Source of the DNA: a virus
Taxonomy: Duplodnaviria; Heunggongvirae; Uroviricota; Caudoviricetes
Length of the DNA stretch: 23,108 nt
Virus record (IMG/VR): IMGVR_UViG_2944808559_000001
Coordinates: 1 to 23,108 of that record
Reading direction: 5' to 3' (one strand)
Part shown: in pieces, positions 2,779-22,600 of the stretch
Numbering within the stretch: position 1 is the first letter of the stretch
Layout of the letters: each line of letters starts with the position of its first letter
Translations under genes and position numbers: made by a program
The notes under the pieces: model-generated
The model's input: the letters and a program-made list of their open reading frames with translations, nothing else
What the model was told of the DNA's origin: nothing
Database searches by the model: none

Positions 2779-3108
2779 ATGGCCAAGACGCCACGCATGA
2801 CCATCCCTACACAGCTCGTGCTCCGCGCCCTGCTCGAAGACCCCACGCGCGAGATGTACGGGCTGGAAATTTGCCACATCGCCGGCCTCGCGCCCGGCAC
2901 AATCCATCCCATCCTTGCCCGCTTCGAGGGAATCGGCTGGCTGGAGTCCCGTTTCGAGGACGTGGACCCGCGCGAGGCGGGGAGGCCCAGACGTCGTTAC
3001 TACCGGCTCGCATCCAATGGCGCCGAGAAAGCACGCCTCGCGTTGGACAATGCTCAGGCTAAAGTGCCGAAGATGCGGCGCCTAGGCCTGGCGGGCGGTG
3101 CAGCATGA
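2779..3108 (+). CDS. PadR-family transcriptional regulator (short subfamily)
   Basis: YGLEI...GTIHPILARFE..GWLES......GRPRRRYYRL winged-helix signature; 109 aa. Confidence 0.92.
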   Translation: MAKTPRMTIPTQLVLRALLEDPTREMYGLEICHIAGLAPGTIHPILARFEGIGWLESRFEDVDPREAGRPRRRYYRLASNGAEKARLALDNAQAKVPKMRRLGLAGGAA

Positions 3109-5731: not shown

Positions 5732-6229
5732 TCAGTTGCTCTCGTCAATCCACCCCGGCAGGCGGCCTTCCAGGCAGCCGGGGGCCTGCCACAGCGTGCG
5801 GCCCACCCGTTCGACGGCGTCGTTGGAACGCGGCCGGGAAGGACACGACCAGCCGCCGCGCGGCGCTCGCACCGCGACCGGCTCCCACCCGGACGCCCGC
5901 AGCGACGCACCATCCTCGTCATCGCGCGTATACGTGATCATCCGCTGGTAGCCAAGCGCCCGCCCGGCCCGCCAGGCCGCCCCGTATAACAGGCTGCAGG
6001 CGTTCGGGGTGCCGTCCGTGGCCAGCCTCGTCACCTCCAGCACGCGGCCGGTGTCGTAGTGGCGCGCGACCGGACGCCCAACGATCGCCACCCCGACCAG
6101 AACCCCCTCGATCGCGGCGCCGACCGAGAACTTGTGGCCGATCGGCGGCCGCAAGTGCCGGTGCACGCCGGCGACGAACGCACACGCCTGCCCGAAGCTC
6201 ACCGGCACGAGCTCCAGCCCGCCCCTCAC
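5732..6229 (-). CDS. XF1762-family protein (GNAT/Mom-like fold inferred)
   Basis: GTG start overlapping the endolysin stop (GTGA). Motifs AFV..HRH..P.GHKFS, GVAIVGRPVAR, LEVTRLATDGTPNACSLLYGAAWRA, GASLRASGW. Confidence 0.8.
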   Translation of the reverse strand: MRGGLELVPVSFGQACAFVAGVHRHLRPPIGHKFSVGAAIEGVLVGVAIVGRPVARHYDTGRVLEVTRLATDGTPNACSLLYGAAWRAGRALGYQRMITYTRDDEDGASLRASGWEPVAVRAPRGGWSCPSRPRSNDAVERVGRTLWQAPGCLEGRLPGWIDESN

Positions 6230-7029
6230 TTCGCGGGCGGCTTCCACGACCAGGTGATGTCCCACGTCTCCTCGTCGATGACGCCGGTCGGCTTCAGCCC
6301 GACCGCCTCCTGGTACCGCTTGCACACGGCCGTGGACTGGGGGCCGTAGATGCCGTCGACGTCGATCGTCCAGCCGCGCTTCTTCAGCTTGTACTGCCAG
6401 GCGTGGACGTCGTTGCCCTGCATGTACGGGTCGTCCAGCTTGATGACGCGGCCTGGCCAGACGGGGACGCTGTCCTTGTAGACGACCCGGATGGGCTTGT
6501 CCATCGGCTTGTCCGGGCGCGGAGCGCCCGCCTTCACCCACGCATACAGCGGCCCGCCGGGGCACGAAGTGGCGTAGCCGTCGCGGTGGCCCTTGATCTC
6601 GTTCCCGGCGTCGCCCTTGTCGCGCAGGTACTCGATCGCGTCCCGCAGGGCGTGCAGCATGGCGTCGTTCGGCTTGGTGAACCCGCTGGAGCCGACCAGC
6701 GCCAACACCGCGTAGTGCGCCGAATTCAGGCCGGCCCCATTCGCGGCCGGCAAGTGGTGCGCGCCGCGGCCGATGAACACGTACCCGTGCGCGCAGCAGA
6801 TCAGGTTGTAGCCGATGTCGATGTACTTCTCGCCCCGGCCGCCGTCCATGTGCATCTGCTGGACCTGGTGGACGAGCTGGACGCACGCCTTGTGCTTCTT
6901 CGACCCGGCGATGTCGGCGGGCACCGGCCCGCCGGTGTAGTGGATTTTCACGCCGCGCGTGGAGGAGACGCGGCTGTAGGGGCCGGTCGGAGACGCGGCG
7001 TTCCAGGTGGCACGCGAAACCTGCTTCAA
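6226..7029 (-). CDS. Endolysin: N-acetylmuramoyl-L-alanine amidase (Amidase_2/PGRP-like) with C-terminal peptidoglycan-binding domain
   Basis: IHYTG, DIGYN and GHRD..ATSCPG zinc-amidase motifs; C-terminal DGIYGPQST..V..YQ...L..TG.ID PG_binding_1 signature. TTG start at 7029 follows GAGGTGA and overlaps an upstream TGA. Confidence 0.92.
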   Translation of the reverse strand: MKQVSRATWNAASPTGPYSRVSSTRGVKIHYTGGPVPADIAGSKKHKACVQLVHQVQQMHMDGGRGEKYIDIGYNLICCAHGYVFIGRGAHHLPAANGAGLNSAHYAVLALVGSSGFTKPNDAMLHALRDAIEYLRDKGDAGNEIKGHRDGYATSCPGGPLYAWVKAGAPRPDKPMDKPIRVVYKDSVPVWPGRVIKLDDPYMQGNDVHAWQYKLKKRGWTIDVDGIYGPQSTAVCKRYQEAVGLKPTGVIDEETWDITWSWKPPAK

Positions 7030-7303
7030 GGAGTCACCTCTCGTGGGGGTTGGAGGTTGAGCCATTGGGCCACGGTCAGCGACAGCGCGGCCTCGGGCAC
7101 GTGGATCGGGAGGACGGCGGGCACGAGCAGCACGCCGTCCTGGCACGGGAACACCGTGCCGACGACGGGGTCAGACAAGGCAGCTCGTCAGCCCCGCGCG
7201 AGCTGGATGAGCGCGATCACCGCGCCGGCCACGGCGACCAGGACCGCGTGTAGGTGGCGGTAGCGAGCTTCGCGCCTCGCTGCCGCCTCGTGCTCAGGTT
7301 CAT
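7026..7303 (-). pseudogene. Small membrane-protein gene apparently broken by a frame switch and a TGA (or two very small genes)
   Basis: ATG 7303 (ATGA overlap) reads MNLSTRRQRGAKLATATYT. The hydrophobic AVLVAVAGAVIALIQLARG continues in the -1 frame to TGA 7188. The same frame reopens (TTG 7178, 50 codons) and its stop overlaps the endolysin start. Confidence 0.45.
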
Positions 7304-7650
7304 GGTTTCCCTTCTGCTGGCTGCTGCTCGGTGCCGGTACGGTGCTGCTCCAGGTGGGCGGCCAGGCCGTCCTCCACACGGCGTACACCGTCCTCGACGC
7401 GGGTGATCGCGTCCCGCAGGCTGGTGCCGTGGTTGGGGCGAAGCTCGGCCTCGATCGCGGCGACCCGCTCGGGGAACCCCGGCCGGTACGGCACGCCTGG
7501 CCGGGCCTCCTCGCCCAGCCAGTCGTCCAAGAAGTGGCTGAGGCGACGCAGCCTGCGCACCAGCAGCGACAGCGCCTTCCACACCAGCGCAACCCCGCCG
7601 CCGACGATCGTCACGACCACGAAGACGTCGACCCAGTAGATGCCGGTCAC
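7300..7650 (-). CDS. Phage membrane protein with one TM segment and a coiled coil (lysis-associated, 116 aa)
   Basis: GTGA overlap with the upstream gene. N-terminal TM segment, then FLDDWLGE..RPG..ERVAAIEAELRPNHGTSLRDAI, typical of actinophage lysis-cassette membrane proteins. Confidence 0.8.
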   Translation of the reverse strand: MTGIYWVDVFVVVTIVGGGVALVWKALSLLVRRLRRLSHFLDDWLGEEARPGVPYRPGFPERVAAIEAELRPNHGTSLRDAITRVEDGVRRVEDGLAAHLEQHRTGTEQQPAEGKP

Positions 7651-8327
7651 ACTGCCTCCTCGACGGGCGAGACGGCGGCGGCGCTCAGGAACGTCAGCGG
7701 CGGCTTCATCGAAAAATGCGGCTCCACGATGCGCGCGAGGTTCTCGCGCCCCCACTCGATCTGCATCCGCTTCGCCGCCACCCGCACAGGGTCGATGCGA
7801 GCAGCCCGGATGGGGTCTAACGGATCAGCCGGCGCGACACGGGCCGAGCCGACGAACTCGAGCGCGCCCTGCCGGTCGGGGAGCGGCGCGGGCTCCACCA
7901 CGAAGCGGTGCGCCTTGACCAGGCGGATGCGCTCCAGGTGGGCGGCCAGCCGGTCAGCGTCCGACACCCCAGGTGTCCAGCACGTTGGCAGGCCCCGGCA
8001 CGCCTCCAGGATCTTGGCCTCCCCTCGATCGGCGCTGGTCGGCGGGAGATCAGGGTTCGGGATGCCGAGCTCGTGCAGGACGACGTCGCACAAGGTGTCG
8101 AGGTCGTCGGGGTCGATGCCGTACGCGGCCGACCGCCACTCGAAAATCCCGTGCGGCATCACCATCACGCCGGAGCCACCTGCAGGATTCGTCATCCACA
8201 CGCCCCACATCGGCTCCGCGCCCGGCGTGCTGGCGTCGATCTCGACGAACCCACCGTCCGGACGCCTGGCGATCGCCGCGGCCGAGTAGCCGAGCTCGGC
8301 GTCCCACACCTGCATGACCTGCGGCAC
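7647..8327 (-). CDS. Tail-tip partner protein 2 (hypothetical, possible assembly chaperone; 226 aa)
   Basis: TAAGGAG-N7-GTG at 8327. Shares FExR..xG....D......L.E and ADPL..(I/L)R...RIDPVRVA motifs with 11288-11755. Confidence 0.7.
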   Translation of the reverse strand: MPQVMQVWDAELGYSAAAIARRPDGGFVEIDASTPGAEPMWGVWMTNPAGGSGVMVMPHGIFEWRSAAYGIDPDDLDTLCDVVLHELGIPNPDLPPTSADRGEAKILEACRGLPTCWTPGVSDADRLAAHLERIRLVKAHRFVVEPAPLPDRQGALEFVGSARVAPADPLDPIRAARIDPVRVAAKRMQIEWGRENLARIVEPHFSMKPPLTFLSAAAVSPVEEAV

Positions 8328-8338
8328 GTACGTTCTCC

Positions 8339-11107
8339 TTAGTGGCGGTGGGCCCAGAAGTAGATGGCGAAACTCGTCGCGTTGGCCAGGTTGACCTGGA
8401 AACCTTCCGTGGTGGACGCCGTCAGCGCCCACGCCTTGGGCGTGTAGGTGTTGCCGAAGGCGTCCGGGCCCCCGCTGCCGCCGTCGCGCAGGGTCACGAC
8501 GGGGCCCATGTTGGTGGCCATCGGCGTCAAGTTGCCGGGCGGCCCGTACCGGTAGCTGGCCCAATGCGGCGTCGAACCGCCGCCGATGCTGAAGCTGCCG
8601 GCGGCGAAGGCGTCGTACGGCGAGGTCTCGTTGGCGTCCCAGACGCGGCCGCGGATAAAGAACCGGCCGCTCGAGTTCAGGAAGATGTAGGTTTCGGAGT
8701 TCGATGAGCCGGTCGAGTAGCCGAACTGGGCGTAGTCGTCAGCGATGTCCAGGCCGCCACCCCGCTGGCTGCCGTTGCTGTTCTGCATGCCGAGCCGGAT
8801 CAGGGTGGAGTCCACCTGGAGCTCGGCGCGCTGCGAGCTGCTGGTGTTCGTGGTGATGTAGATGGCGGCCTCGCCGCCGGAGTCCTGCGAGTAGATGCGC
8901 GAGTAGTTGCTGCCGCCTGCGGGGTAGAACCGCAGGTCAAGCGTGCTGGAGTCCAGCACGAAGCGACGACCGGTCGGCGAGCTGCGCACGATGCTGCCGG
9001 TGATCGTCTTACCGTTGATCGCGTCCGCCGCGATCGTCTGTGCCGTGACGGAGCCTGCGGCCAGCTTGTCGGCCGTGATCGCCGCGGCGGCCAGGTGGCC
9101 GGTCTGGATGGCCCCGGCCTCGATCTTGTCGGCGGTGATGGAGTTGGCGTTCAGGTGGCCGGCGTTGATGGCGAGCGCCTGGATTAGGGTGCCGGTGATC
9201 GTGTTCGCGGTGATCTTGGCGTTGGCCGGGATGCTGCCGTCGATCACGTGCTCGGCCCCGTCGATCACCTGCCCGATCAGGTCGGTGTCGACCAGCGGCA
9301 CCACGGCCGCGACGACCCGAGCCGACTCCCCACTGACGTTGCCCGACCTGTCGAGCGCGACCAGCCAGAACTCCCTGTCGCTGTTGTACGGCAGGCCGGG
9401 CACCACGGCGGTCCCAGCCCGCTCCAGCCACTCCACCTGCGTGCCGTCGTCCTCGGCATCGAGCGGGTCGCGCATCATGACGAGCGCTCGGTGGAAGTCG
9501 GTCGGCATGCCGGTGCCCGAGCTGGTCAGGCCGTCCCAGGTGACGCGCACGATCCCGAGCCGGGAGTCGACGACCGGCGTGGACGGGCTCGGCGGCGGCC
9601 CCTCATCGTCCGGGATCGTCAGGACCGGCGACGTCGCGAGCAGTCCCTTGGTGCCCTGGTTGGTGGCCCGCACCCCGAACCGCCACTGCGTCTTCGGCTC
9701 CAGCGGACTGTAGGAGATGCTGGTGCCGTCGGTGTGGCCGAGCACCCGTTCCGCGCCCGTGCCCGGCGGCGTCTGCCCGATCAGCTCGTACCCGTCGACG
9801 GACAGGGCGACGCCGTTCTCGTCCGTCGAGACGGGCAGCCATGACACGGTGATCAGGCCGTGGGCGTAGCCCTCCGCGTCGAGGTACGCCTGCGGGTCCA
9901 CGATCAGGCCGGTCGGCGCGGCCGGTACCCGGTCCTTGCTGTCGGGAGCCGGTTCGCCGCCGTTACCGCCCTCGGTCACCCCGCCCGACAGGATGCCGTT
10001 GGCCCGGCGCGAGATCCTGATGTCGCGTTCGAGGAACCGGTCGTTCAACACCAGGTTGCCGCCGATCACGCCTTCGGCGTCCACCGTCAGCGTGATCTGC
10101 CGGATCCGCAGCCCCTGCATGACCGCCTGGTCACCAGGGGCGCGCACGGTGTCGCCCACCCGGTAGTCCCGCAGCGGCAGGAATCGGGCCGCGTAGGGCG
10201 TGATCTGCCGGGTGAGCTGCACCCGCTCCCCCGACGCCCGGTCGAGCGCGTACCGCGCGAGCATCCGCGCGGTGCCCTCGTCCTTCACCCCGCCCTGCGA
10301 TTGGTACGTCTCCCACCGCCCCCATGGCCGCACCGCCACTGGGTTGGTCACCTCGACGGACAGGCCGTCCTCGCCGGTGATGAGGATGGCCGAGGCCGCG
10401 TCCTCGAACGTCGCCTCGTCCGGAGCCTGTTCGATGTCCCGGCCGAGACGCAGCTCGACGGGCGCGGGCCCGGACCCGAACTGGCGGCCGAGGGTGGTGT
10501 TCTCGTTGAAGATTTGCAGCGTGCGGCCTTGTATCTGCCAGTCGCAGACGCCCTGCTCAGCGAGGTTGATCAGCACAGCGAGCAGGTCCGTGCCGGGGTC
10601 GAGGCCGAGTGTCAGCGTCGCCGCCCACGGCTGGCCCGCGGAGTCCTCGAACGCGTCGAAGTCGTAGTCGAGGCCGGGCAGCGTACCGCGGCTGCGCGCC
10701 TCGTCGATCATCTGCGACACGATGTCGCCGACAGTGGTGGCCGGGAACTGGCGCTTGCCGTCGATCATGCCGATCGACGGGTACAGCACGAGCTTGCGGA
10801 GCTGCCAGGCGTAGCCCGGCAGATCGTAGGAGCGGGTCAGCGCGTGGTCGGCGTTGTCGCCGGACCGCTTGATCCGCAGATACCGGCCGTTGGCGGGCTC
10901 CACCCAGGTGCCGCCGGCCGACCACTCCACCGCGACCTCGCACGGGGAGGCCAGCCAGGTCGCGCCGGCCGCGTGCCCGGAGTACGTCAGTCGGAGGCTC
11001 GGCGTGTCATTCAGCGGCATCGCCGCCTCGAATCCGAGGTGCTGCCCGAGCACGCCGAGACGCGCCCCGTTCGGGGCGTAGGCCACGAGCCGCAGGCCGT
11101 ACCGCAT
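8339..11107 (-). CDS. Tail-tip protein 2 (Tal/hub-like N-domain, FN3-like domains, fibre repeats, divergent C-terminus)
   Basis: Paralogue of 11755-14502. Contains PAAPTGL and PPPSPSTP FN3-like starts and ITADKIEAG/ITADKLAAG repeats. The start is 11107 (matches the paralogue N-terminus) or 11134. Confidence 0.88.
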   Translation of the reverse strand: MRYGLRLVAYAPNGARLGVLGQHLGFEAAMPLNDTPSLRLTYSGHAAGATWLASPCEVAVEWSAGGTWVEPANGRYLRIKRSGDNADHALTRSYDLPGYAWQLRKLVLYPSIGMIDGKRQFPATTVGDIVSQMIDEARSRGTLPGLDYDFDAFEDSAGQPWAATLTLGLDPGTDLLAVLINLAEQGVCDWQIQGRTLQIFNENTTLGRQFGSGPAPVELRLGRDIEQAPDEATFEDAASAILITGEDGLSVEVTNPVAVRPWGRWETYQSQGGVKDEGTARMLARYALDRASGERVQLTRQITPYAARFLPLRDYRVGDTVRAPGDQAVMQGLRIRQITLTVDAEGVIGGNLVLNDRFLERDIRISRRANGILSGGVTEGGNGGEPAPDSKDRVPAAPTGLIVDPQAYLDAEGYAHGLITVSWLPVSTDENGVALSVDGYELIGQTPPGTGAERVLGHTDGTSISYSPLEPKTQWRFGVRATNQGTKGLLATSPVLTIPDDEGPPPSPSTPVVDSRLGIVRVTWDGLTSSGTGMPTDFHRALVMMRDPLDAEDDGTQVEWLERAGTAVVPGLPYNSDREFWLVALDRSGNVSGESARVVAAVVPLVDTDLIGQVIDGAEHVIDGSIPANAKITANTITGTLIQALAINAGHLNANSITADKIEAGAIQTGHLAAAAITADKLAAGSVTAQTIAADAINGKTITGSIVRSSPTGRRFVLDSSTLDLRFYPAGGSNYSRIYSQDSGGEAAIYITTNTSSSQRAELQVDSTLIRLGMQNSNGSQRGGGLDIADDYAQFGYSTGSSNSETYIFLNSSGRFFIRGRVWDANETSPYDAFAAGSFSIGGGSTPHWASYRYGPPGNLTPMATNMGPVVTLRDGGSGGPDAFGNTYTPKAWALTASTTEGFQVNLANATSFAIYFWAHRH

Positions 11108-11111
11108 CGGC

Positions 11112-11291
11112 TCACCCGGAACGATCACCTGCATGCGCTGTCCCCTCTCGCTGCTTGAGCTGGGCCTGGAGCTGGTCGACCGCGACGGCCAGGACCGCGT
11201 TCTCGTACGTCAGCTCATCGATGCGTCTGCGCAGGAACGCCACCACGGCGTTCGGGTCCACGTGCAGGTCTTCATGCGAGTCGTCGGTCAT
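11112..11291 (-). CDS. Small coiled-coil phage protein (59 aa)
   Basis: ATGA overlap with the upstream gene; MTDDSHEDLHVDPNAVVAFLRRRIDELTYENAVLAVAVDQLQAQLKQ; GC-rich third codon positions. Confidence 0.7.
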   Translation of the reverse strand: MTDDSHEDLHVDPNAVVAFLRRRIDELTYENAVLAVAVDQLQAQLKQREGTAHAGDRSG

Positions 11292-11755
11292 GCGCTCCCC
11301 AGCAGATGCCGGTCGATCGCCAGCCGGATGGTGGCCACCCGCACCGGGTCGATACGCACGCGATCGCGCAGCGCCTGCAGCGGATCGGCCGCAGCTTGCG
11401 CCGACCGGCCGGAAGCGGCGGCGGGCGCATCGGTGAGGACCTGGCCGTACTGCTCCCGGCAGGCCGCGATCTGCCCCTGCAGCCGGGCCCGCGCCGAGGC
11501 CGCGTCCCCCTCCAGCCGGACCTGCGCATCCGGGTCGCCGTCGGCGTGCATCCACGACAGCAGCGGCTCGTACAGCAGCGCCTCGATCACCTCGTCGAGG
11601 GACGTCAGCCCGTGCTCGGCCATGCGGTGCTCGAAGGCTTCCTTCGGGAAGCTGGCGGCGACCGTGCCCCCGTCGCCGTCGACCGGCTCGTACAGGAACG
11701 TCCACGCGTCCGGTCCTTCTTCGACGTGGGTGATCCGCCAGGTACGCACGCCCAT
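11288..11755 (-). CDS. Tail-tip partner protein 1 (hypothetical, possible assembly chaperone; 155 aa)
   Basis: TGATG overlap with the tail-tip 1 stop (MGVRTWRITH...); paralogous to 7647-8327. Confidence 0.75.
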   Translation of the reverse strand: MGVRTWRITHVEEGPDAWTFLYEPVDGDGGTVAASFPKEAFEHRMAEHGLTSLDEVIEALLYEPLLSWMHADGDPDAQVRLEGDAASARARLQGQIAACREQYGQVLTDAPAAASGRSAQAAADPLQALRDRVRIDPVRVATIRLAIDRHLLGSA

Positions 11756-14502
11756 CACGCTCCATGTTGTCGCCAGGCCCACACGTACAGCAGCGTCGTG
11801 AAGTTGGTGGGCGTCGAGGTCTCGTGTGATCGCAGGGTGAACCCGGTCGTGCTGGGCGAGGTGACATGAAGCACCAGGCGAGCCGGGATCGGGTTGTCGG
11901 CGGTGATCAGCACGCGCGGCGCGGACTGGAGCGTCACGATGAACGAGACGAAGTGCGATGCCGCCGCCGTGGTGAGGTTGCGGGAGAACATGACCAGGCC
12001 CGCAGCGGACTCGTAGTTGAAGGTGCCCCGGAACGCCGTGTAGCCCGTGGCGCTTCCGGCGCCGCCGTTGTTGAACAGCCACCGGTTCAGGCGGCCCGCG
12101 GTGTCGTTGTAGCCGACCTCGAGCTGGTTCGGCTGCGCGAACATGTAGCCGCCGCCGGCGAGCCCATCCGCGGTCTGCACCATGTGCATGCGCCACTCGT
12201 CGCCGCGTTGGATCACCTCCGAGCGGCGCGTGCCGTCCGTGCTCGTGCCGGAGTACAGCCGGATCGCGGCCTCGGCGTCGGTCCAGATGCGCGCGTAGTT
12301 CGTGCCGGTCCCCGGCATGAACCTGATCTCCGGATCAGCCGCGCCCGCAGGGTTGACGATGATCCGGCGGCCGGTCACGCCCGTCGCGAGCTGCCCGACG
12401 ATGCTGACCGCGCCGGACGTCGACGAGATGGACACGGTCTGCACAGAGGAGGCGTTGTACGCCTCCAGACCGCTGGCGTTCAGCTCCACCCGGGCCCCGG
12501 CCGGAGTGCCAGCCACGATCCGGGTTGAGAGCGTCAGGACGGCTTCCAGCTTCGCCGCGGTGACCTGCTCGGCGGCGATGTGCCCGGCGAGGATCTGTCC
12601 GGCGGCGATCTTCGCTGACGTGATCGCGTTGGCCACGATCGCGCCCGTGGTGATCGACTCGTCGGCGGCGTCGCCCTGGACGAGCTGCACCGCGGCGATC
12701 GTCGCCGTCGCGCTCCGCGCCGAGGCATTCCCCGAGCGGTCGACGGCGGTGAACGAGAACTCCCTGTCGGCGCCGTACGGCAGGCCGGGCACGACGAGCG
12801 ACCCGGCCGCGTCGAGATACCCGATCTCGGTCCAGCCCGGCGCGAGCGGGTCCTGCATCCAGACCAGGACATGCAGCAGGTCGGACGGCATCGGTACCGC
12901 CCCGACGCCCAGCCCATCCCACGTCACGTGCACGACACCGAGCCGGGACTCCAGCGCCGGGGCGGTCGGCACCGGCGGCGCGTCCGTGTCGTCCGGGATG
13001 GTGACGGCCACGGACGACGAGAACGGCCCGCGCTGGCCGAGGTTCACCGCCCGGACCTTGAACTGGTACTGCTGCCCGACCACCAGCGGACTGAAGGTGG
13101 CGTTGGTGTCGGCGGCCTCCGTCGCCGTGATCAGGAACCACGGCGCGCCTTCCTCGTTGATGCGTGCGAACAGCTCGTAGCCGCCGATGACGAGCGCCAC
13201 GCCGGCCACGTCGGTGGTGACCGCGCCCCACGTGGCGGTCACCTGCCCGCGCGGCAGGCCGTGCTCGTCGAGGTAGGCGAGCGGGTTCACGATCAGACCG
13301 GCGGGTGAGGCCGGGGTGCGCGGAGCCGGTGACTCCGGCGCCGGTCTTGCTCCGGATCCGCCCTCGGCGGTGGAGCCGCCGACGATGCCGGCCGTACGGC
13401 GGGACAGCCGCAGGTCCCGCTCCAGCAGCCGATCGTTCAACACGACGTTGCCGCCGAGGACGCCGTTCTTGTCGCGGGTCACGGTGAGCTGCCGGACCCG
13501 CATGCTCTCCATCGCGCCGCCCGCAGAAGGGGCGAGGACGCGATCCCCTGGCCGGTAGTCGCGCCAGGGAAGCCAGCGCGCGGTGTACGGGGTGATCTGG
13601 CGGGTCCGCTGGATGCGCTCGCGCCCGGAGCGCAGCAGCACCGCTTCGGCGAGCAGCTGCGCGGTCCCCGGGTCGGAGACGCCGCCCTGCCCGATGTAGG
13701 TCTCCCACCGCCCCCACGGCGCGGATGCGCTGCCGTTCGTGTACGACGCGCGGAACCCGTCTTCGCCGATCACGAGGGCCGCGCTGGCGAGGTCCTCGAA
13801 CGTGCCCACGTCCGGGGCGGCGACGACGTCGCGGCCGAACCGCAGATCCACCGGCGCGTCCCCCGCCGCCAGGTCCCGCGCGAGCTCGGTGTCGGCGTTG
13901 AACACCTGCAGCGTCCGCCCCTGCATGCGGAAGTCGCAGACGCCCTGCTCGGCGAGGTTGATGAGCGTGGTGAGCGCGTCGAGGCCGGGACGGTAGTAGA
14001 TCGTCAAGATCTTCGCCCACGGCTCGCTAGCTGAATCGTGTGTCGGAGTGAAGTCCCAGTCGAGCGCGGGCAGCGCGCCGCGCGCCTGCCCCTCCTGCAG
14101 GAACGTCTGCAGGATCGCCCCCGGCATCGCGGACAGGAACGCCCGCTTGCCGTCGACCAGCGGAGCAGCGCCCGGGTAGAGGATCACCTTGCGCAGCATC
14201 CACACGTACCCGGGCAGCTCGTACATGGCCAGCCCGGTCTCGTCCACCTGGTCGGCCCGACGCCGGATCAGCAAGAACCGGCCGTCGCTCGGCTCCGTCC
14301 ACGCCTGTCCGTCTTCCGACCATTCGACGGCGACCTCGACCGGCCCGTCGAGGAGCTCCGCGTTCAGGGCCCGCGTACTGTAGGACAGCTTCAGCGCGGG
14401 CACGTCATTTAGCGGGCATGCGACGTCGACCATCAGTGGTTGAGGGACAACGCCAAGACGGACTCCGAACGGGGCATAGACCACTAAGCGTAGTTCAGTC
14501 AC
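11755..14502 (-). CDS. Tail-tip protein 1 (Tal/hub-like N-domain, FN3-like domains, fibre repeats, divergent C-terminus; 915 aa)
   Basis: Lies downstream of Dit. Shares LINLAEQGVCD, PWGRWETY, TRQITPY and LNDR.LERD with its paralogue. Contains ITSAKIAAG/VTAAKLEA repeats. Confidence 0.9.
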   Translation of the reverse strand: MTELRLVVYAPFGVRLGVVPQPLMVDVACPLNDVPALKLSYSTRALNAELLDGPVEVAVEWSEDGQAWTEPSDGRFLLIRRRADQVDETGLAMYELPGYVWMLRKVILYPGAAPLVDGKRAFLSAMPGAILQTFLQEGQARGALPALDWDFTPTHDSASEPWAKILTIYYRPGLDALTTLINLAEQGVCDFRMQGRTLQVFNADTELARDLAAGDAPVDLRFGRDVVAAPDVGTFEDLASAALVIGEDGFRASYTNGSASAPWGRWETYIGQGGVSDPGTAQLLAEAVLLRSGRERIQRTRQITPYTARWLPWRDYRPGDRVLAPSAGGAMESMRVRQLTVTRDKNGVLGGNVVLNDRLLERDLRLSRRTAGIVGGSTAEGGSGARPAPESPAPRTPASPAGLIVNPLAYLDEHGLPRGQVTATWGAVTTDVAGVALVIGGYELFARINEEGAPWFLITATEAADTNATFSPLVVGQQYQFKVRAVNLGQRGPFSSSVAVTIPDDTDAPPVPTAPALESRLGVVHVTWDGLGVGAVPMPSDLLHVLVWMQDPLAPGWTEIGYLDAAGSLVVPGLPYGADREFSFTAVDRSGNASARSATATIAAVQLVQGDAADESITTGAIVANAITSAKIAAGQILAGHIAAEQVTAAKLEAVLTLSTRIVAGTPAGARVELNASGLEAYNASSVQTVSISSTSGAVSIVGQLATGVTGRRIIVNPAGAADPEIRFMPGTGTNYARIWTDAEAAIRLYSGTSTDGTRRSEVIQRGDEWRMHMVQTADGLAGGGYMFAQPNQLEVGYNDTAGRLNRWLFNNGGAGSATGYTAFRGTFNYESAAGLVMFSRNLTTAAASHFVSFIVTLQSAPRVLITADNPIPARLVLHVTSPSTTGFTLRSHETSTPTNFTTLLYVWAWRQHGA

Positions 14503-14686
14503 ATCAAGCCCTGTTTTGTTGATTGGCCACTTTTGTCACAAAGGACTCGCTCGGGCGTCGCTACTGCGCACAGAACGTATCGCCGAAACCCCTCGCAAAG
14601 AAGTCTGATGCTGGCTATCTTGGCCGTCGTGCAGATCGACCAGAGGATGGCCTTGGCGGCACAAGAGATCAAGGTGACGAAGAGGT

Positions 14687-15091
14687 ATGAGCGTGCGAAT
14701 AAGGGAAAGCAATCGGGACTTGCCCAGTCCACTGCTGATTGCCGTATCGGAGCTCATGATTCTCCGCGCCCTAGAGCTTGCAGGGAAGCGAATACCACCA
14801 CGTCGAGGCAACCGCTCGCTGCGAGCGATCTACCAAGACGTCCCCCCATGGGAAATTCACACCATCTTTCCAGCACGGGCTGATGAGTTGGATAAGCTCC
14901 TAGCTAACGCCTGGACGCTTCCGCTTAATATCGGAGTTCCCGCATCGCTAGTGGAGACATTAGACGTGCACGCCAGGACGCTCTTGGTCGCGGGACTCGC
15001 ATTCGCCCGAGGCGACCTGTGCCTGACACTCTCGCAAATGTCTTTTGATGAAGCCGAACTGCCATGGCTCTTGCCTCGACCACTGGCCTAG
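14687..15091 (+). CDS. Hypothetical protein (134 aa) in an opposite-strand insert
   Basis: ATG preceded by purine-rich AAGGTGA..GAAGAGGT; protein-like helical sequence ELMILRALELAGKRI; AT-richer codons including TTA at 14960. Confidence 0.6.
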   Translation: MSVRIRESNRDLPSPLLIAVSELMILRALELAGKRIPPRRGNRSLRAIYQDVPPWEIHTIFPARADELDKLLANAWTLPLNIGVPASLVETLDVHARTLLVAGLAFARGDLCLTLSQMSFDEAELPWLLPRPLA

Positions 15092-15201
15092 TTGGCTGAT
15101 CAGAAGCTTCCCGCCCCATGACGCTACGGCTCTCCTCAACAAAAGTTAAGGCTCTCGCGAATGCCGCATAGGGCCTAAACGGCAGGACATAAGAGGGAAC
15201 T

Positions 15202-16164
15202 ATGATCGCACCCCACGCCCCCACCTGCGTTCTTTGTGGAGCCCCGCATGCTCGGGCAGAACACGTCTGGACTCGCCGACTTGCCCAGTATCAGCAGAGG
15301 CTCTCCCCGGGGGCCGGATTTACCGCTGACCTGATCATGGCGGACCTTGGGCGTCGACCACTCCGAAGCGCTAACGGACAGCGTTGGACACATCCAACAT
15401 TCCCACACGTGACCGTGCCCGCATGCGAGGACTGCAATAAATGGTTGAACGATAACTTCGAGCGCCCTGCACATGCGGCAATCACAAAAACACTCGACGA
15501 ATGTGACGTTCCTCTAACCTATGCTGAAACGACAGCGTTGGCGCGATGGCTAGGAAAAACATCCCTTTTGCTTCAACACCAAGAAGCCAAAGGCATTGTT
15601 CCCGGCGACGAGGATCGCCGCCAAAGAGACTGCTGGGAAGTGGCTACAAGACTTGTTCGAGAGCTACGGAGGGGAAGTGAACTGCCCGACGACCTTTCTA
15701 TCTGGATGGCGCGGGCCGATGACACGGACGGAAACGCCGAGCTTTCGACTTCGCCGCGAATCTACCTACCCACAACGAGCGGCACTGGTGGCCTCGGCGG
15801 AGAAAGTGTCGCCACCTCATTCGGCATAGGCATGCGCAGCGGGGCAATGCTATGCGTCCAGGTGGCTTACCACCCTCTCGTTGATATAGCGCATCCTTTT
15901 GAGGGTTCCCGCTTTGCGATACGCCTGTGGCCTGACCCTCCAGCGAAATTTAACATTCGGAATCTGCCCAGACTATCCACGGTGGGGCGGCGGCAATTCA
16001 ACAGCGTCTTTGTCCGTGGAGCTGGGCACATTACCCTTCCCCTTCCAGACGAACGTGTGACCTGCCGCCCGGATGTGGACCCTCTCATGGATTTCTGGAC
16101 TCATTGGGGCCGCTCCATGCCAGTAGATGAACAATCACCCGAGACTGGAAGCGATCATGAATGA
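15202..16164 (+). CDS. HNH-like zinc-finger protein with an uncharacterised C-terminal domain (320 aa)
   Basis: AAGAGGGAACT-ATG start. CxxC..AEHV and CxxCN..LN..FE motifs of the treble-clef HNH class; visibly lower GC than the flanking phage genes. Confidence 0.7.
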   Translation: MIAPHAPTCVLCGAPHARAEHVWTRRLAQYQQRLSPGAGFTADLIMADLGRRPLRSANGQRWTHPTFPHVTVPACEDCNKWLNDNFERPAHAAITKTLDECDVPLTYAETTALARWLGKTSLLLQHQEAKGIVPGDEDRRQRDCWEVATRLVRELRRGSELPDDLSIWMARADDTDGNAELSTSPRIYLPTTSGTGGLGGESVATSFGIGMRSGAMLCVQVAYHPLVDIAHPFEGSRFAIRLWPDPPAKFNIRNLPRLSTVGRRQFNSVFVRGAGHITLPLPDERVTCRPDVDPLMDFWTHWGRSMPVDEQSPETGSDHE

Positions 16165-16282
16165 CATGCGGTGAACACCCTACTTGGTGTTCGTGGCACT
16201 CACATGAAGCCGAGAAGATCGGACGACTGGCAAGTTCTCGTGAAGAAGCAACTCGCCTGCAGGCAATGCTAAGTCTGCGCTA

Positions 16283-17152
16283 TCACTGGAAAGAACGGCG
16301 GGCCCGGATCTCCAGCTTGGACGCCGCCGTGGTGGAGGTGGCCGCCGCGGTGACGAGCACCGCGCGGGAGTGCGGGTCGCCGACCGCCACGGACGGGGTG
16401 AGGTGCAGCCACCGGAACGCCGAGCCAGGGCCGGTTGCGGCAATCTGGCCAGTCACGTCCGTCCCTGCGGTCATGTCCCACGTGTCGGTCGTCACCAGGC
16501 GGGCCCGCATCTGCCCGCAGTCGATGAGCAGCCGCTGGCCAGCGGACAGCCCGGACGAGCGGGAGACGGTGCCTCCGGTGGCCACGTCGGTCACGGCCGG
16601 GTTCACAGCCGGGCCGGTGACGCGCACCACCGCGTCGGTGATCGGAGCGGTTGAGCCCGCGAGCGTGGTCACCAGCTGGTCGGCGGCGTTGACGGCCCCG
16701 GACCAGGTGGTGTCGAACAAGTCGCGCCAGTACACGCCCGGGATGCGCATCACGGCCGTCAGCCGGGCCATGGCCGCGTCGGTGTTGATCTCCGGCTCGC
16801 TGATCCCGTCGAGGATGACGTCGGCCTGCCGGACGACGGTCCCCGCGACGAAGGTGAGCTTCATCAGCCGGTGCTTGACGCCGAGCACCGCGCCGAGCGC
16901 TTCGAGGTTGTGCTCCATCTGCTCGTACCCGCCCGGCGCCCCCGAGGGGGTGCGGCCGTACACGGTCAGCACGAGCGGCATCGTCGTCGTCTCATGATCG
17001 AGCCCGAGGATGGGCAGCTCCCCCGCCCGGCCGGGCACCTTGACCTCGACCTGTCGCAGGCCCGGAAGAGGCCTGCGCTTGGTGCCCTTCTTGAGTCGCC
17101 AGCACCCGGCAGGATGGTCCAGGGCGACCCCGTCGAGCAGGTACGTCGGCAT
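16283..17152 (-). CDS. Distal tail protein (Dit)-like (289 aa)
   Basis: Directly after the TMP; size, beta-rich sequence, VPGRAG N-terminal motif and basic RARR C-terminus are typical of siphovirus Dit. Confidence 0.8.
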   Translation of the reverse strand: MPTYLLDGVALDHPAGCWRLKKGTKRRPLPGLRQVEVKVPGRAGELPILGLDHETTTMPLVLTVYGRTPSGAPGGYEQMEHNLEALGAVLGVKHRLMKLTFVAGTVVRQADVILDGISEPEINTDAAMARLTAVMRIPGVYWRDLFDTTWSGAVNAADQLVTTLAGSTAPITDAVVRVTGPAVNPAVTDVATGGTVSRSSGLSAGQRLLIDCGQMRARLVTTDTWDMTAGTDVTGQIAATGPGSAFRWLHLTPSVAVGDPHSRAVLVTAAATSTTAASKLEIRARRSFQ

Positions 17153-17317: not shown

Positions 17318-19603
17318 CTACAGCACGCCCAGCATCCCGGCATAGGCGAGGCCGCGGTTGACGGTCTCGCTGGTGGTCTCGGCGGCCGGGTTGATCGTGG
17401 TGACGTGGATGTTGACCCCGGCCGTCCGGTTCGGGCCCACGCCGCCGGTGACGATGCGGCCGGTCGAGCCGATATGCGCGGCGAGCTCCGGCCGGAACGA
17501 CGCCTCCAAGTCCCCGGCGATGCGTGAGGCGGTAGCCAGCACCGTACGGGCCGAGGTTTGCATGCCCTGCGCCATGCCGAGCATCGTGAACTGGCCGATC
17601 TCGGCGAACACCGTCGACGGGGAAGCGATACCGAGGGCCTGCCGCACCCAGTCCGGCATGATCCCCTGGAAGAAGTTGTAGATCATGTCGCGGAACCACG
17701 CTCCGGCCGCGACGATCCCGTTCCACAGCCCGACCAGCAGCTGCCAGCCGAGGTTGTCGACGGCGACGAGGAAGTCGAGGATGCCGCGCCCGGCCGTGGC
17801 CAGCGCGCCGATGAAGTCGCCGGTCAGCAGCAACGCGACCGCCCGGACCAGCGTGATCAGCGGCGGCAGCAGCGCGGTGACGAGCTGCAGCAGCGGCGGC
17901 AGCACCGGCAGGATCGCCGGGAGCAGCTGAGCGAAGGAGCTGATCAGCGCGAGCAGCTGCGGCGACAGGTCCACCAGGGCCTGCAGGAGGACCTGGCCGA
18001 TCTGACCGGCGACCTGCGCGATCAGCGGCAGCAGCGGCCCGAGCACCGGGACCAGCCCGGTCACGAACTGCGCGACCAGCAACGCGAGCTGCGGCAGCAG
18101 CGGCGCGATGGCCGGGATGAGCGTGTTGACGACCAGGACGGCGAGCGCGCCCAGCAGCGGAAGAACCGGCTGGATGGCCAGCAACGCGAGCGAGAACGCG
18201 GAGACCAGCAGGTTCAGCGACGGCAGGACGGCTTGCACGCCGGCCGCGAGGACCTGCGCGACGAGGGAGGCCAGCTGCCCGATGACGGGCAGGAGCGGCG
18301 CCGCCGCGACCATGATGGCCGAGATGGCCTGCGCGATCGGCACCATCGCGGGCGCGACCGCCGCGGCGGCCACGCCCAGCGCGGCGAAGACTGCCGAGAT
18401 GCCGGGGAACAGCGCGGCCAGCGCGGGCACCACCGCCTGGATGGCGGCGGTGAGGATCGGGCCGAGCTGCACCGCCAGCGCCGCCACCAGCGGCGCGAGC
18501 ATGCCGACCCCTTCGGCGACGGCGACGAGAGCCGGAGCGAGCGCGGACGCCATCTGGCCGAGCGACGCGAACACCGACGTGAGGGCGCGCTGCCCGGCCA
18601 TGCTGTTCACCCAGGCGTTGACCCGGTCGAGGATCGTGCCGAGCACCCCGAGCGCGTCCCCTCCGGCGGCACGCACCGCGTCGAACACGCCGGAGAAGAT
18701 CTGCCACACGTCCGCAGCGAGTGAGCCGAGCTGACGCAGGACGAGGACGGCGTCCTGCATCCAGCCGAGCGCCCGGCCGGATTCGGCGGCCGCGGTGAGG
18801 AAGTCCCCGAACCGGACCGCGAGCAGCGCCAGCTCGGGGGCAAGCCCGGCCGCGAACTGGGCGCCTACGGTGGTGATGCGGGTCAGGCCGGTCAGCACCG
18901 GATCGATCGCGACCGCCAGGGCGTCGACGGCGAAGCGCAGCGACGCGAACACCGTGGCGATCGCCGCCACAGCGGTGTCGGAGCGAGCGAACTCGGCGAC
19001 CCGCGCCGCAGCTCGGCCGAGTGCGTCCGCGACCGAGCTCATGCCGATCGCGACGGGCCCCAGCAGCACGTCGGCCAGCGCGGTGAGCTGGCCGAGCAGG
19101 AGGGTGAACAAGCTGTCTTGGACGAGGTTCCGCAGGCCCAGCAGCACCGGCCGCAGGGCACGCAGCTCCCTAGCTGCGCTCTGAGCGGCCCCAGACAGGC
19201 CCTTGATCGCTTCCTCGAACTTCTGTTCGTCTTCCCCCAGCGCGGCCGTGAACGCGTCCTGGACCCCGTACAGGGCCACCGACAGGGTCGCGATTCCGGC
19301 TGCTCCGAGCGCGGCCACTCCGGGCAGAGCCGCGACGAGCCCGACAGCGGGAGCGAGCGCCGCCCCCAGCGAGACGACGCCGTTGGCCAGCGCGCCGGCC
19401 GCGGCCGACATCAGCGCCATCCGGGCGGCGGTGGTGACGATCGCGGCGCCCATCTGCACGACCGAGGCGGTGACCTGGTTGGTCGAGCCGCGGAAGGAGA
19501 TGGAGGCCCGCTGGGTGGTGTCGAGCGCCCGGGTGAGCCGCGTGGCGAACGACTGATCTCGCAGGTCCAGGGTGATGAACAGCTCGCCCACGTTGATCGC
19601 CAC
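17318..19603 (-). CDS. Tape measure protein B (761 aa)
   Basis: Start GTG 19603 after CAGGAGGT gives (M)AINVGELFITLDLR. Ala/Leu-rich helical Pro-periodic repeats, LGIASPSTVFAEIG motif, and position before Dit. Confidence 0.92.
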   Translation of the reverse strand: MAINVGELFITLDLRDQSFATRLTRALDTTQRASISFRGSTNQVTASVVQMGAAIVTTAARMALMSAAAGALANGVVSLGAALAPAVGLVAALPGVAALGAAGIATLSVALYGVQDAFTAALGEDEQKFEEAIKGLSGAAQSAARELRALRPVLLGLRNLVQDSLFTLLLGQLTALADVLLGPVAIGMSSVADALGRAAARVAEFARSDTAVAAIATVFASLRFAVDALAVAIDPVLTGLTRITTVGAQFAAGLAPELALLAVRFGDFLTAAAESGRALGWMQDAVLVLRQLGSLAADVWQIFSGVFDAVRAAGGDALGVLGTILDRVNAWVNSMAGQRALTSVFASLGQMASALAPALVAVAEGVGMLAPLVAALAVQLGPILTAAIQAVVPALAALFPGISAVFAALGVAAAAVAPAMVPIAQAISAIMVAAAPLLPVIGQLASLVAQVLAAGVQAVLPSLNLLVSAFSLALLAIQPVLPLLGALAVLVVNTLIPAIAPLLPQLALLVAQFVTGLVPVLGPLLPLIAQVAGQIGQVLLQALVDLSPQLLALISSFAQLLPAILPVLPPLLQLVTALLPPLITLVRAVALLLTGDFIGALATAGRGILDFLVAVDNLGWQLLVGLWNGIVAAGAWFRDMIYNFFQGIMPDWVRQALGIASPSTVFAEIGQFTMLGMAQGMQTSARTVLATASRIAGDLEASFRPELAAHIGSTGRIVTGGVGPNRTAGVNIHVTTINPAAETTSETVNRGLAYAGMLGVL

Positions 19604-19650
19604 CGTCTCCACCTCCTGTGGGGTCCCGAATGAGAGGTGGAGACGGCGAC
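19599..19650 (-). promoter_or_regulatory. Hairpin that sequesters the TMP-B ribosome-binding site and start codon
   Basis: Perfect 13-bp inverted repeat CCGTCTCCACCTC (19603-19615) / GAGGTGGAGACGG (19634-19646), extendable to 17 bp with two G-U pairs on the minus-strand RNA. Confidence 0.65.
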
Positions 19651-19677
19651 AACGACCAGGGGGCCCGGGGGCGGGCG

Positions 19678-22600
19678 TCAGACCAGGCCGAGCACCGAGG
19701 CGTACTGCAGCCCCTTGTTGACCGTCTTGCTGGTGGGTTCGGCCTGGGGGTAGTTGTTCGTCACGTTGACCACGGTCTGGTTACCGGCCCGGCCGCCGAC
19801 CATCCCGGGGGTGAGCGTCGCGGCCGGCTTCGGCGTGAACACCTTGGTCAACTGGCCCGCGACCCCAGCCGCCTTGGCGAGCATCTTCGGCGCGGCCTCG
19901 ACGATGCCGTTCTCCAGACCGGACATGGTGAACGCGCCGATCTCGGCGAAGATCTGCGATGGCGACTTGATCTTCAGTGACTTCTTGATCTGGTTGACGA
20001 GCGCGTTGGCGATGTCGCGCATCGCCGCTTCGATCTGCTTCTTCTGCGAGACGATTCCGGCCAGGAAGCCCTTGCCCGCGTTTTTCCCGGCGTCGAACAT
20101 CGCGTCGGCGGCGGCCTTCCCGGCATCCTTCGCAGCCTTCTCGATCATCCCGTAGGTGCTGTTGATCGACTTGAAGGTGGACGAGTCCGCCTGCAGGATC
20201 GCCTGCCCCAGCTCGTTACCGGCCTCAGGCCCGGCCTCGATGATCTGGCTCAGCAGGCCCTTCGACAGGCCGCGCGCGGCCAGCTTCTTGATCGTGTTGG
20301 CCCAGGACTTGATCAGCGCGAGCCGCGACTTCAGCCCTTCCTGGATGCCTTCCGCGCTGGCGGGGTTCTGCTCGTTGAACCCCATGTTCGACAGGTTCGC
20401 GAACTGGCGGGTCTGGTCGCCGATCTGCTTGGCGTACGCCATCGCGTCAGCGATCGTCTTGACGATCGCCTCTCGCTCCTTGGCGAGCTTGGCCAGCTCG
20501 GTGTTGCCGGACCGGATCGACTCGACCAGGTGGTCCTTCACCCCGGCCGTGATCCTGCCGGACTGGAAGGCGTTCACCACGGCGTCGACCATCCGGCCGG
20601 CCGTGTCCTTGATCTTGGACTCTTCTCCTTGAAGGCCGAGCACCCAGCCCTTGGCCGTGTCGGAGCCGACCGCCGCCATCACCTTCGACGGCGAGCTGAT
20701 GCCGAGGAGCCGCTTGATCCAGGAGATGAAGCCGGAGAACAGGTTGCCGACGGAGGAGGTGAAGGAGTTCCAGGCGTTGACGAACCCCTGCTTGATGCCG
20801 TTGACGAGGTCCGCGCCGAGAGTCCACAACTTTTTGAAGGCGGCGGTGATGGTGTTGCCGAACTGGGTGACCCCGTTCTTGATCGTCTCCCACGCGCCTT
20901 GGAAGTCGCCGGTGAGGACCTTGGCCAGGGCGGTGACGATGCTGATGACCAGCGGAATCACCGACGAGCCGAGCTGGATCAGCGGCGGCAGGACCGGCGT
21001 GATCGCTGAGACGATCTTGGTGAAGATGGTCGCGAGGTTGAGCAGGATCGGCGACAGCGCCGTCACGAGCTGCACCAGCGGCGGCAGCAGCGCCGTGGCG
21101 AGCTGCATGATCGGCGGCAGGATCGGCAGGATCGCCGTGATCAGCTGACCGAAGATCGTCGCGAGCTGCGTGAAGATCGGCGACAGCTGCATGATCGCCT
21201 GCTGGATGGCCTGTCCGAACAGGACGGCCATCTGCGAGATCGGCGGCAGCAGCGGCGTGATCGCGCCGACGAGGATCGTGATCGCCTGCACCAGGACGCC
21301 GCCGAGCGCGGCGGCGATCTGCCCCACCACGGGGATCAGCGGAGTGATCGCCGGGACGAGCCCGGTGATGAGCTGCGCGGCGAGCTGCGCGATCGGCGGG
21401 ACGAGCGGCAGCAGCGCGATGACGAGCTGCCCGAACGCCTGCGCGATCTGACCGATCACCGGCCGAAGCTGCGTCAGGACCGGAGCGAGCGACGTGGTGA
21501 CGGTCTGCCCGACGCGCACCAGGACCGGCGCCAGCGCGGTCGCGAAGGTCGCGACGAGCTGCAGAACCGGCGGCAGCAGCGGGATCAGCGCCGCCGCGAG
21601 CTGCGCGAACGACCCCATCAGGCTGCCGATGCTCGGGCCGAGCTGCGTCAGGACCGGCGCGAGCTGCGCGGACAGCGTCTGCGCGATCATCGTCAGCCCG
21701 GACATGAGCGGCCCCGCTAGCGATCCCGCTAGCCCGACAACCGCGCCGAGCAGCGGCCCCATCGCCTGCAGGAGACCACCGAGACCGGTCATCAGCGTGG
21801 CCAGCAGGCCGGAATTCTCCGACAGCGCGGCCGAGATCGGAGCCATGAATCCGGCGAGCTGCCCGCCGAACTGGCCCAGCGACCCGGCGACCTGCGACAG
21901 CATCGGCACCACGGCCGCGACGACACCCTGGATGGCGGGCAGCATCGGCCCGAGGAAATCGCCAAGACCGGCCGTGAACTGCCCGATCAGCGGCGCGATC
22001 TGAGCGAACATGCCCTGCAGGGCGGGCGCGATCTGCGTCGAGAACATCGTCTTCAGCGACCCGGCCGCCTGCGCGAGCGGCCCCTCCAGCACGGACGCGG
22101 CCTGCGCCAGGTCCGCCTGGACGGACTTCTTCAGGTCGGCGAAGGCGGCCTTGACCTTGGCCGACTCCATCGCGGCCTTGATGCCGATGACCGCGATCCC
22201 GGCCGTGATCCCGGCGAACACCCCGGCCAGCACACCGCCAGCTCCGACGCCGGCGGCGCCCATCCCGACGAGCGCTGTGCCGGCCTTGTTGGCCATGCCG
22301 AGGACCATCGGCGTGGAGGTGAGCGTCGCGGACCCGAACTGGGTCAGGCCAGTCGTCATGGTGGTGAGCGCGCCGCGCACGGTCAGCGACGAGATACGCA
22401 CCAGCCCGGACGTGGCCTGCCACGCAGTGGAGATGCGCCGCAGGTTCGTCACCACCTGCGACAGCTGGTTGTAGGCGGAGGTGACGCGGTTACGCATCTC
22501 CTCGCTGTCAGCCCACAGCCCGCGCATCCCGGCCGCGACGCCGGCGAACGCGGCCGCGGTGCGGGCGCGCATGGCGTCGACGCCCCGGCCGATCAGGCTC

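Follow-up and report, generated by a model that had tools for sequence, protein, structure and literature searches.

The window analysed here, 23,108 nucleotides at the start of the 88.7-kb provirus record IMGVR_UViG_2944808559_000001 (its first 23.1 kb; GC content ~70%), belongs to a prophage of a Nonomuraea-type soil actinomycete and carries two complete, paralogous tail-tip genes behind a single Dit gene. Both lie on the minus strand: Tal-1 (P0002; 11755-14502, 915 amino acids, GTG start) takes the first position after Dit, and Tal-2 (P0001; 8339-11134, 931 amino acids, ATG start) takes the second. Each is followed by a partner gene on the same strand, namely X1 (11288-11755, 155 amino acids) for Tal-1 and X2 (7647-8327, 226 amino acids, GTG start) for Tal-2. 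The protein class itself is known; no match was found in the open-access literature for the conserved arrangement seen here, in which two complete hub-fibre paralogues with one partner gene apiece follow a single Dit. Most likely, the phage shows its host two different binding heads, and we tentatively favour the explanation that the two proteins form separate homotrimers that compete for the single Dit site, so that a burst would hold two tip types.

A first-pass annotation of the window had described two colinear, full-length paralogues without frame breaks, and BLASTP bore this out (45% identity and 60% positives over 824 amino acids, E = 0; no frame break in the alignment). The motifs that it had quoted, including LINLAEQGVCD, PWGRWETY, TRQITPY, LNDRxLERD, the FN3 motifs, and RFxPxxGxNYxRI, were present in both proteins, and its length of 915 amino acids for Tal-1 was correct. 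Tal-2, given as ~922 amino acids, was extended to 931 from the ATG at 11134, because the stretch of 9-12 residues ahead of the internal Met shows protein-level conservation in every second-position orthologue, and most of these lack a Met at the internal position. Two other descriptions had to be revised. The C-termini had been said to keep only short matches, but hhalign of the profiles of the two orthologue groups aligned the distal ~190 residues end to end (probability 99.2%, E = 6.5e-20, 178 columns, 24% identity), showing that they are one domain that has strongly diverged. Divergence had also been regarded as largely synonymous, but nonsynonymous divergence (dN) between the paralogues ran from 0.44 in the hub to 1.08 in the distal domain, against synonymous divergence (dS) of 0.64-1.05. 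The two hubs were ~55% identical. Recent gene conversion between the copies in this window was rejected: the longest shared DNA spanned 70-130 nt at 71-76% identity, and the two genes have no long near-identical DNA in common.

AlphaFold2 monomer models of full-length Tal-1 and Tal-2 were built from alignments of 85-91 relatives and reached mean values of 83 and 81, respectively, in the predicted local distance difference test (pLDDT). The plan was the same in both models: a ~370-residue hub led through a conserved Gly-rich linker to two FN3 domains, which were followed by a shaft of low confidence and, at the far end, a distal domain rich in beta strands. In Tal-1, the hub domain (residues 1-372; 13387-14502) had a four-subdomain hub fold of the gp27/gp44/gpJ type with pLDDT mostly above 90 over residues 1-370, followed by the FN3 domains (residues 395-606; 12685-13320), the shaft (12328-12684), and the distal domain (residues 726-915; 11758-12327), which was the most variable part among orthologues. 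The homologous distal domain of Tal-2 covered residues 734-931 (8342-8935). Low pLDDT in the Tal-1 shaft (residues 609-659) is expected of a monomer model because a shaft needs its trimer. The shafts were unlike, with ~7 eleven-residue repeats in Tal-2 and ~4 in Tal-1, the latter followed by a ~45-residue beta insert that has no counterpart in Tal-2. The linker GGxxxxGGxGxxPAP between hub and FN3 (13330-13390 in Tal-1, 9935-9995 in Tal-2) had invariant Gly, Gly, and Pro across 91 sequences. It sits exactly at the point where the hub-only proteins of some relatives end.

Fold searches with Foldseek and VIA were queried with the Tal-1 model, and the Tal-2 model was compared by its secondary-structure plan, which was the same. 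The best Foldseek match was lambda gpJ (8k35_A, E = 3.9e-18), and the tips of T1, T5 (pb3), and DT57C as well as VgrG were also matched. VIA-align placed the Tal-1 hub with the monocin tip (9j1k_L, Z 20.6), MuSo2 (3cdd, Z 19.1), the Douge hub (Z 19.0), Mu gp44 (1wru, Z 18.6), the 80alpha Tal (6v8i, Z 18.0), and the Bxb1 tip (9d93, Z 17.7); sequence identity to any solved hub was 8-14%. The FN3 domains gave a weak Pfam fn3 match, a family profile that hit titin FN3 in PDB (E = 8e-16), and VIA Z scores of 13-15 to FN3 tandems. PHROGs returned only the generic names ‘tail protein’ or ‘tail fiber’, with tail-fibre matches at residues ~610-760, and NCBIfam had no family match for the Tal proteins. 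No lysin or hydrolase domain was found in either protein in Pfam, PHROGs, or NCBIfam, and the name ‘Tal’ refers here to structure, not to lysin activity. The Tal genes stand directly downstream of the tape-measure protein (TMP) and Dit genes, with an insert between in the window, and in locus L007 the Tal-1 start follows Dit by 22 nt. The homologues in cultured phages are arranged in the order TMP, Dit-sized gene, Tal homologue. The hub fold, the FN3 domains, and this gene order indicate that Tal-1 and Tal-2 are hub-plus-central-fibre proteins, and the models assign them to the predicted gp27/lambda-gpJ-type class of hub, FN3, and fibre.

Scans of IMG/VR and of one genome per species yielded 69 loci, in which hub domains were counted per locus (loci are cited by number, as L007 above). 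In ~35 distinct loci (including one contig that wraps between the two genes), a full-length A-type copy came first and a full-length B-type copy second; these loci were distributed over nine genera of Streptosporangiaceae: Nonomuraea, Spongiactinospora, Planomonospora, Thermocatellispora, Sphaerimonospora, Sphaerisporangium, Planotetraspora, Streptosporangium, and Bailinhaonella. Eight Nonomuraea loci had a hub-only first copy of 378-382 amino acids and then a full-length B-type copy, and ~19 loci in Pseudonocardiaceae, Nocardiopsis, Allonocardiopsis, and a few Streptosporangiaceae had a single copy. The nearest relatives of the window were Nonomuraea prophages (86-88% identity for Tal-1, 81-85% for Tal-2). 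Cultured phages with a homologue (all 19 and 39 records) had one copy per record at no more than 37% identity, the nearest being Streptomyces BE-type phages and phages from oral samples. Relatives thus do routinely carry both genes, which the first-pass annotation had considered for obligatory subunits of one tip; the pair is not strictly obligatory, since L071 has lost Tal-1 and kept Tal-2. In the single-copy locus L003 (Allonocardiopsis, 8786-12742), the Tal frame is open for ~400 codons upstream of the hub, to just after Dit, which represents either an N-terminal extension or merely an open frame in high-GC DNA.

Hub-domain trees recovered an A clade and a B clade as sister groups, with support of 97-98 and 94-95, respectively, in the Shimodaira-Hasegawa-like approximate likelihood ratio test (SH-aLRT). 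Tal-1 belongs to the former and Tal-2 to the latter, and the single copies of Pseudonocardiaceae, Nocardiopsis, and Allonocardiopsis fell outside both. These trees indicate that the duplication is old and that both copies co-diverged with their prophages. The closest relative of the window differed by gene (L013 for Tal-1, L010 for Tal-2), indicating that the modules recombine. Basal B-type single copies in Herbidospora, Acrocarpospora, and Microbispora stood directly after Dit and were followed by X2, and L071 was nested among second-position copies (support 99). An A-type copy alone was found in none of the 69 loci. Loss was therefore one-sided, and a B-type Tal appears to work alone beside Dit in the single-copy relatives and in L071.

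Gene mapping by open reading frame (ORF) calling guided by GC content at third codon positions (GC3), together with family scans in Pfam, PHROGs, and NCBIfam, placed both genes in a single late operon on the minus strand in the order TMP-A, TMP-B, Dit, (insert), Tal-1, X1, Y, Tal-2, X2. The stop of Tal-1 and the start of X1 share one base (TGATG), X1 and Y overlap by ATGA, and Y (11112-11291, 59 amino acids, with a coiled-coil-like sequence as judged by eye) overlaps the Tal-2 start by 23 nt, with a GAGAGGGGA site before that start. The GTG of X2 lies 11 nt past the Tal-2 stop and has a Shine-Dalgarno AAGGAG upstream. Such junctions suggest that the five genes Tal-1, X1, Y, Tal-2, and X2 are translationally coupled. 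Between them there was no promoter-like site and no clear terminator; therefore, both Tal proteins should be made together. An inversion or other DNA switch was rejected, as no inverted repeats flank the genes and both have the same orientation; the sole inverted pair in the region (38 nt, 74% complementary) was within coding sequence.

X1 and X2 were weak paralogues (28% identity, E = 1e-5), which implies that the duplicated unit was a Tal gene plus its partner. X2 was also found 3' of single-copy B-type Tals. X1 had no match in Pfam, PHROGs, or NCBIfam, X2 had none in Pfam or NCBIfam, and Y had one sub-threshold Pfam match; among the families searched, both partners thus seem to be outside any known chaperone family. 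The hub-only loci have lost X1 and Y and kept X2. The loss of X1 along with the fibre connects this partner with the part of Tal-1 beyond the hub, either the fibre or the distal domain. In L027, L052, and L054, Y is kept between two full-length Tals and no X1 was detectable, indicating that X1 is not universally needed for a full-length Tal-1.

Comparison with close orthologues pointed to purifying selection on both Tal genes. The ratio of dN to dS (omega) was 0.09-0.32 in the hub, FN3, and shaft of Tal-1 and mostly 0.17-0.39 in Tal-2, with one outlier of 0.59 for the Tal-2 FN3 in the L013 pair. It rose in the distal domains to 0.22-0.42 in Tal-1 and 0.45-0.71 in Tal-2, and pairwise identity within each clade fell from ~0.65-0.72 to 0.30-0.47 across the last ~170 residues. 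Both distal domains thus show a substitution pattern that would be typical of an exposed, host-facing domain. Their nearest atlas clusters were named ‘tail fiber’ (0.88-0.90; leads only), and PDB profile searches of both distal domains gave no match. The fold searches used the full-length model, so that hub and FN3 domains, rather than the distal domain, accounted for their matches. The first FN3 domain of Tal-2 orthologues occurred in two very different types (alignment A1, columns 455-500); the type in L006 and L007 resembled that of Tal-1 and the single-copy proteins, and the type in the window, L004, and L005 did not. Between the window and L013, dN in Tal-2 was 0.46 for FN3 and 0.23 for the hub. 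The two types and the raised FN3 divergence point to a probable domain-level exchange.

The alternative receptor-binding tips proposed in the first-pass annotation remain the best explanation, as intact tip genes with fast-evolving distal domains make two specificities reasonable. Both genes would encode functional virion proteins of the Tal/baseplate-hub-plus-central-fibre class, made from the late tail operon. Each Tal would form trimers of identical subunits, probably with its cognate partner (X1 or X2) assisting or completing them. Because a tail offers one Dit ring and a single hub site, these homotrimers would compete, and one burst would release two kinds of tail with different distal domains, which are the presumed receptor-binding parts. 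Such hard-wired population heterogeneity would widen or hedge adsorption. Tal-2 and X2 would be the ancestral, indispensable module, and Tal-1, X1, and Y the added one. This explanation is favoured because it needs no new structural principle and fits both a Tal-2-type protein working alone and the one-sided loss, and the unlike shafts argue for separate trimers. The only Dit in the window (16283-17152, minus strand, 289 amino acids, phrog_33) has orthologues of 52-72% identity directly upstream of Tal in relatives. The size of Dit did not differ between loci with one Tal and loci with two, indicating that it has no extra docking domain.

A link of the two Tals to one tape measure each, as the first-pass annotation had implied, did not hold, since many two-Tal prophages have a single tape measure. 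Two tape-measure ends were found in ~19 loci, all of them two-Tal loci, whereas a single one was present in every hub-only locus and in at least 13 of the two-Tal loci. Matched TMP-Tal pairs, as in a ‘dual tail’, were therefore rejected as a requirement, and the Tal pair is independent of two tape measures.

Two observations weigh against simple competition between tips. The first is the hub-only copy, which eight prophages keep under purifying selection (omega 0.18-0.39 at dS 0.57-0.85, like the hubs of the companion Tal-2) and which stops cleanly after the last hub helix. Pure competition with such copies would produce many fibre-less tips, a costly outcome unless these are useful, as the short Tal of TP901-1. 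The origin of these copies depended on the model: an LG+G4 tree with a very long outgroup placed them in clade B, and a mixture model without that outgroup placed them within clade A (SH-aLRT 98). The approximately unbiased test left the clade B placement unrejected (difference in log-likelihood 11.8, p = 0.197); descent from clade A is thus favoured by the trees but not settled. The second observation is an N-terminal arm of 11-12 residues, (V/M)QVI(I/V)PGxPx(R/K)(Y/F)(G/A), that precedes the first hub strand in every second-position Tal-2 (residues 1-12 in the window, 11099-11134) and was modelled with low confidence in the monomer. Proteins in the first position, hub-only proteins, and primary single-copy proteins begin 2-3 residues before that strand. 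The arm was present in ~45 of ~45 second-position copies, and the apparent single-copy exceptions were L071, a secondary loss, and L038, a second-position copy on a wrapped contig. The arm was gained only where a first-position copy exists, and simple competition leaves this unexplained.

These two observations are accommodated more naturally by a two-tier tip, in which both hub trimers sit under one Dit ring on every tail, in series or side by side. Tal-1, with the ancestral N-terminus, would be a Dit-proximal open adaptor hub that can be reduced to a hub-only ring, and Tal-2 would be held below or inside it through the new arm and carry the obligatory central fibre; a full-length Tal-1 would contribute a further set of binding heads, attached by long flexible linkers. 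The restriction of the arm to second-position copies, the clean hub boundary of the selected hub-only copies with their loss of X1 and Y, the order Dit, Tal-1, Tal-2 that mirrors proximal to distal, and the absence of any locus with Tal-1 alone are in line with this arrangement. Translational coupling fits a fixed stoichiometry, and partial precedent exists in actinophages: in Jabs, an open Tal trimer holds the N-terminal segments of a spike trimer distinct from it, and Douge combines a hub with a central-fibre protein that has an N-arm. On the other hand, two complete paralogous hubs are not known to be stacked in any solved structure of a phage tail, tailocin, or injection system. In the single-copy relatives, a Tal-2-type hub would dock straight onto Dit, and L071 has retained the arm despite losing Tal-1. 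The arm appears from the trees to have arisen once, so that its association with a first-position copy counts as one evolutionary event, and the branch on which it arose is short (0.03), indicating that the Tal-2 hub was not visibly remodelled. The axial fibre of Tal-1 would also need to move aside. We regard the two-tier tip as rather unlikely in itself, and as a close rival to separate, competing tips.

It is improbable that Tal-1 is not a receptor-binding part of the virion at all, but an initiator or chaperone of tip assembly or a prophage decoy against related incoming phages. The retention of a hub-only form in eight species and the dispensability of Tal-1 in L071 would suit such a role. 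However, ~35 loci keep its FN3 domains, shaft, fast-evolving distal domain, and partner gene, all under selection, which is the signature of an exposed adhesin, and the gene lies within the late structural operon.

Mixed heterotrimers, in which Tal-1 and Tal-2 subunits would share one hub trimer, are slightly less credible again. VgrG paralogues are reported to co-assemble in this way in type VI secretion, and the ~55% identity of the two hubs, their common fold with VgrG, and their production from one operon would allow it. The heterotrimeric tip offered by the first-pass annotation is nevertheless disfavoured: the number of shaft repeats is not the same, and an additional beta segment is present in Tal-1; each copy has a separate partner gene; the hub-only and full-length subunits paired in eight relatives cannot give a three-chain fibre when mixed in one trimer; and the two genes recombine independently among relatives (window/L013 versus window/L010).

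A decaying or silent Tal-1 in this particular prophage, cut off from late transcription by the 1.8-kb low-GC insert with antisense ORFs directly upstream and deprived of its native ribosome-binding site, is very unlikely even with its weak Shine-Dalgarno-like sequence before the GTG and a TTA at codon 6, given an intact ORF with a GC3 of 91%, omega of 0.1-0.3 against the closest orthologues, and several relatives that have inserts at the same junction and keep both genes. The TTA is at 14485-14487, and the first ~34 codons of Tal-1 are AT-rich. Control by TTA (of the bldA type) was rejected, as the codon-6 TTA was found only in the window and L010 among ~37 orthologues; AT-rich 5' ends are common and not specific.

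The remainder of the window places the tip module in a larger phage context. The insert between Dit and Tal-1 (14503-16282, strand not assigned; GC 0.58-0.62) is outside the tip module, and its antisense ORFs of 320 and 134 amino acids had no match in Pfam, PHROGs, or NCBIfam. The Dit/Tal-1 junction is a cargo hot spot, with a gap of 22 nt in L007 and of ~0.2 kb to 8.8 kb (L010) elsewhere. Upstream, two complete tape-measure paralogues (17318-23108) share N- and C-terminal motifs at 30-42% identity: TMP-A (19678-23157, minus strand, 1159 codons stop-to-stop) and TMP-B (17318-19612, minus strand, 764 amino acids). With the same C-terminal motif on both tails, either TMP could fit either hub. 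An endolysin gene, separate from both Tals, lies farther downstream (6226-7146, minus strand), and the record end beyond the lysis genes encodes a DUF3800 protein on the minus strand (1-792) and, on the plus strand, a PadR-type regulator (2779-3108). Relatives in L004, L006, L007, L011, L017, L018, L023, L031, L034-L036, L067, and L069 were on stand-alone contigs of 83-108 kb, of which L034 was labelled a plasmid, and others (L008, L024, and L032) were within chromosomes. One Planomonospora contig (L016 and L038) had the two Tal genes at opposite ends, as though the molecule were circular or permuted. These stand-alone contigs are akin to the 88.7-kb record and may reflect a phage-plasmid lifestyle.

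The hub (Tal) of siphophages is usually treated as a single-copy, single-site protein, with three copies under one Dit hexamer. A pair kept through the radiation of a bacterial family implies either a second place for a hub on the particle or the deliberate production of two particle types. Both possibilities are relevant to how a siphophage can broaden or hedge the recognition of its hosts with no switch, diversity-generating element, or additional side fibre. A two-tier tip, if true, would be novel, with two different binding heads displayed on a single particle. Filamentous, differentiating actinomycetes serve as hosts, and their surface may change between growth stages. The system is testable because it is carried by many cultured Nonomuraea and Streptosporangium strains, and natural variants (a hub-only first copy, the loss of Tal-1, and one versus two tape measures) provide controls.

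Searches of the open-access literature yielded no account of a siphophage with full-length hubs that are paralogues of each other. Lambda gpJ, the T1 tip protein, T5 pb3, and the Bxb1 and Douge hubs resemble both Tals in having a gp27/gp44-like hub, FN3 domains, and a fibre, encoded after TMP and Dit. However, these phages have one such gene, whereas two complete paralogues, each with a partner, stand here behind a single Dit. Type VI secretion systems have several VgrG paralogues with different C-terminal extensions, and VgrG shares the hub fold with the Tals; it serves a different machine, and heterotrimers are disfavoured here. Mu S/U and S'/U', lambda stf/tfa, and T4 gp37/gp38 are pairs of a fibre and its cognate assembly or adhesin partner. 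As in those systems, each variable fibre gene here has its own small partner gene on its 3' side, and the partner is lost with the fibre, as in the hub-only loci without X1. Unlike in Mu, there was no counterpart of the inversion switch, and X1 and X2 matched no known chaperone family.

In TP901-1 and Tuc2009, long and short tip forms of Tal arise from one tail module, and the hub-only and full-length pairs of the eight relatives look like a genetic version of this arrangement. In both Tals, the hub boundary is marked by a conserved Gly-rich linker, and the linker found here resembles in character the Gly-rich processing motif of the TP901-1 Tal. In TP901-1, however, one gene is involved and proteolysis removes a lysin domain, whereas two genes are involved here, there is no lysin domain, and both forms usually have a fibre. 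In the lactococcal 936-group phage Phi4.2, a second, diverged adhesin gene is located upstream of the classical one, and both proteins are in the virion and bind the host (PMC6315561). The present system likewise has a second, diverged gene for a putative adhesin upstream. Receptor-binding proteins of the Phi4.2 type are attached to the baseplate periphery, where there are many attachment sites, whereas the protein duplicated in these actinomycete prophages is the hub, for which each tail has one site.

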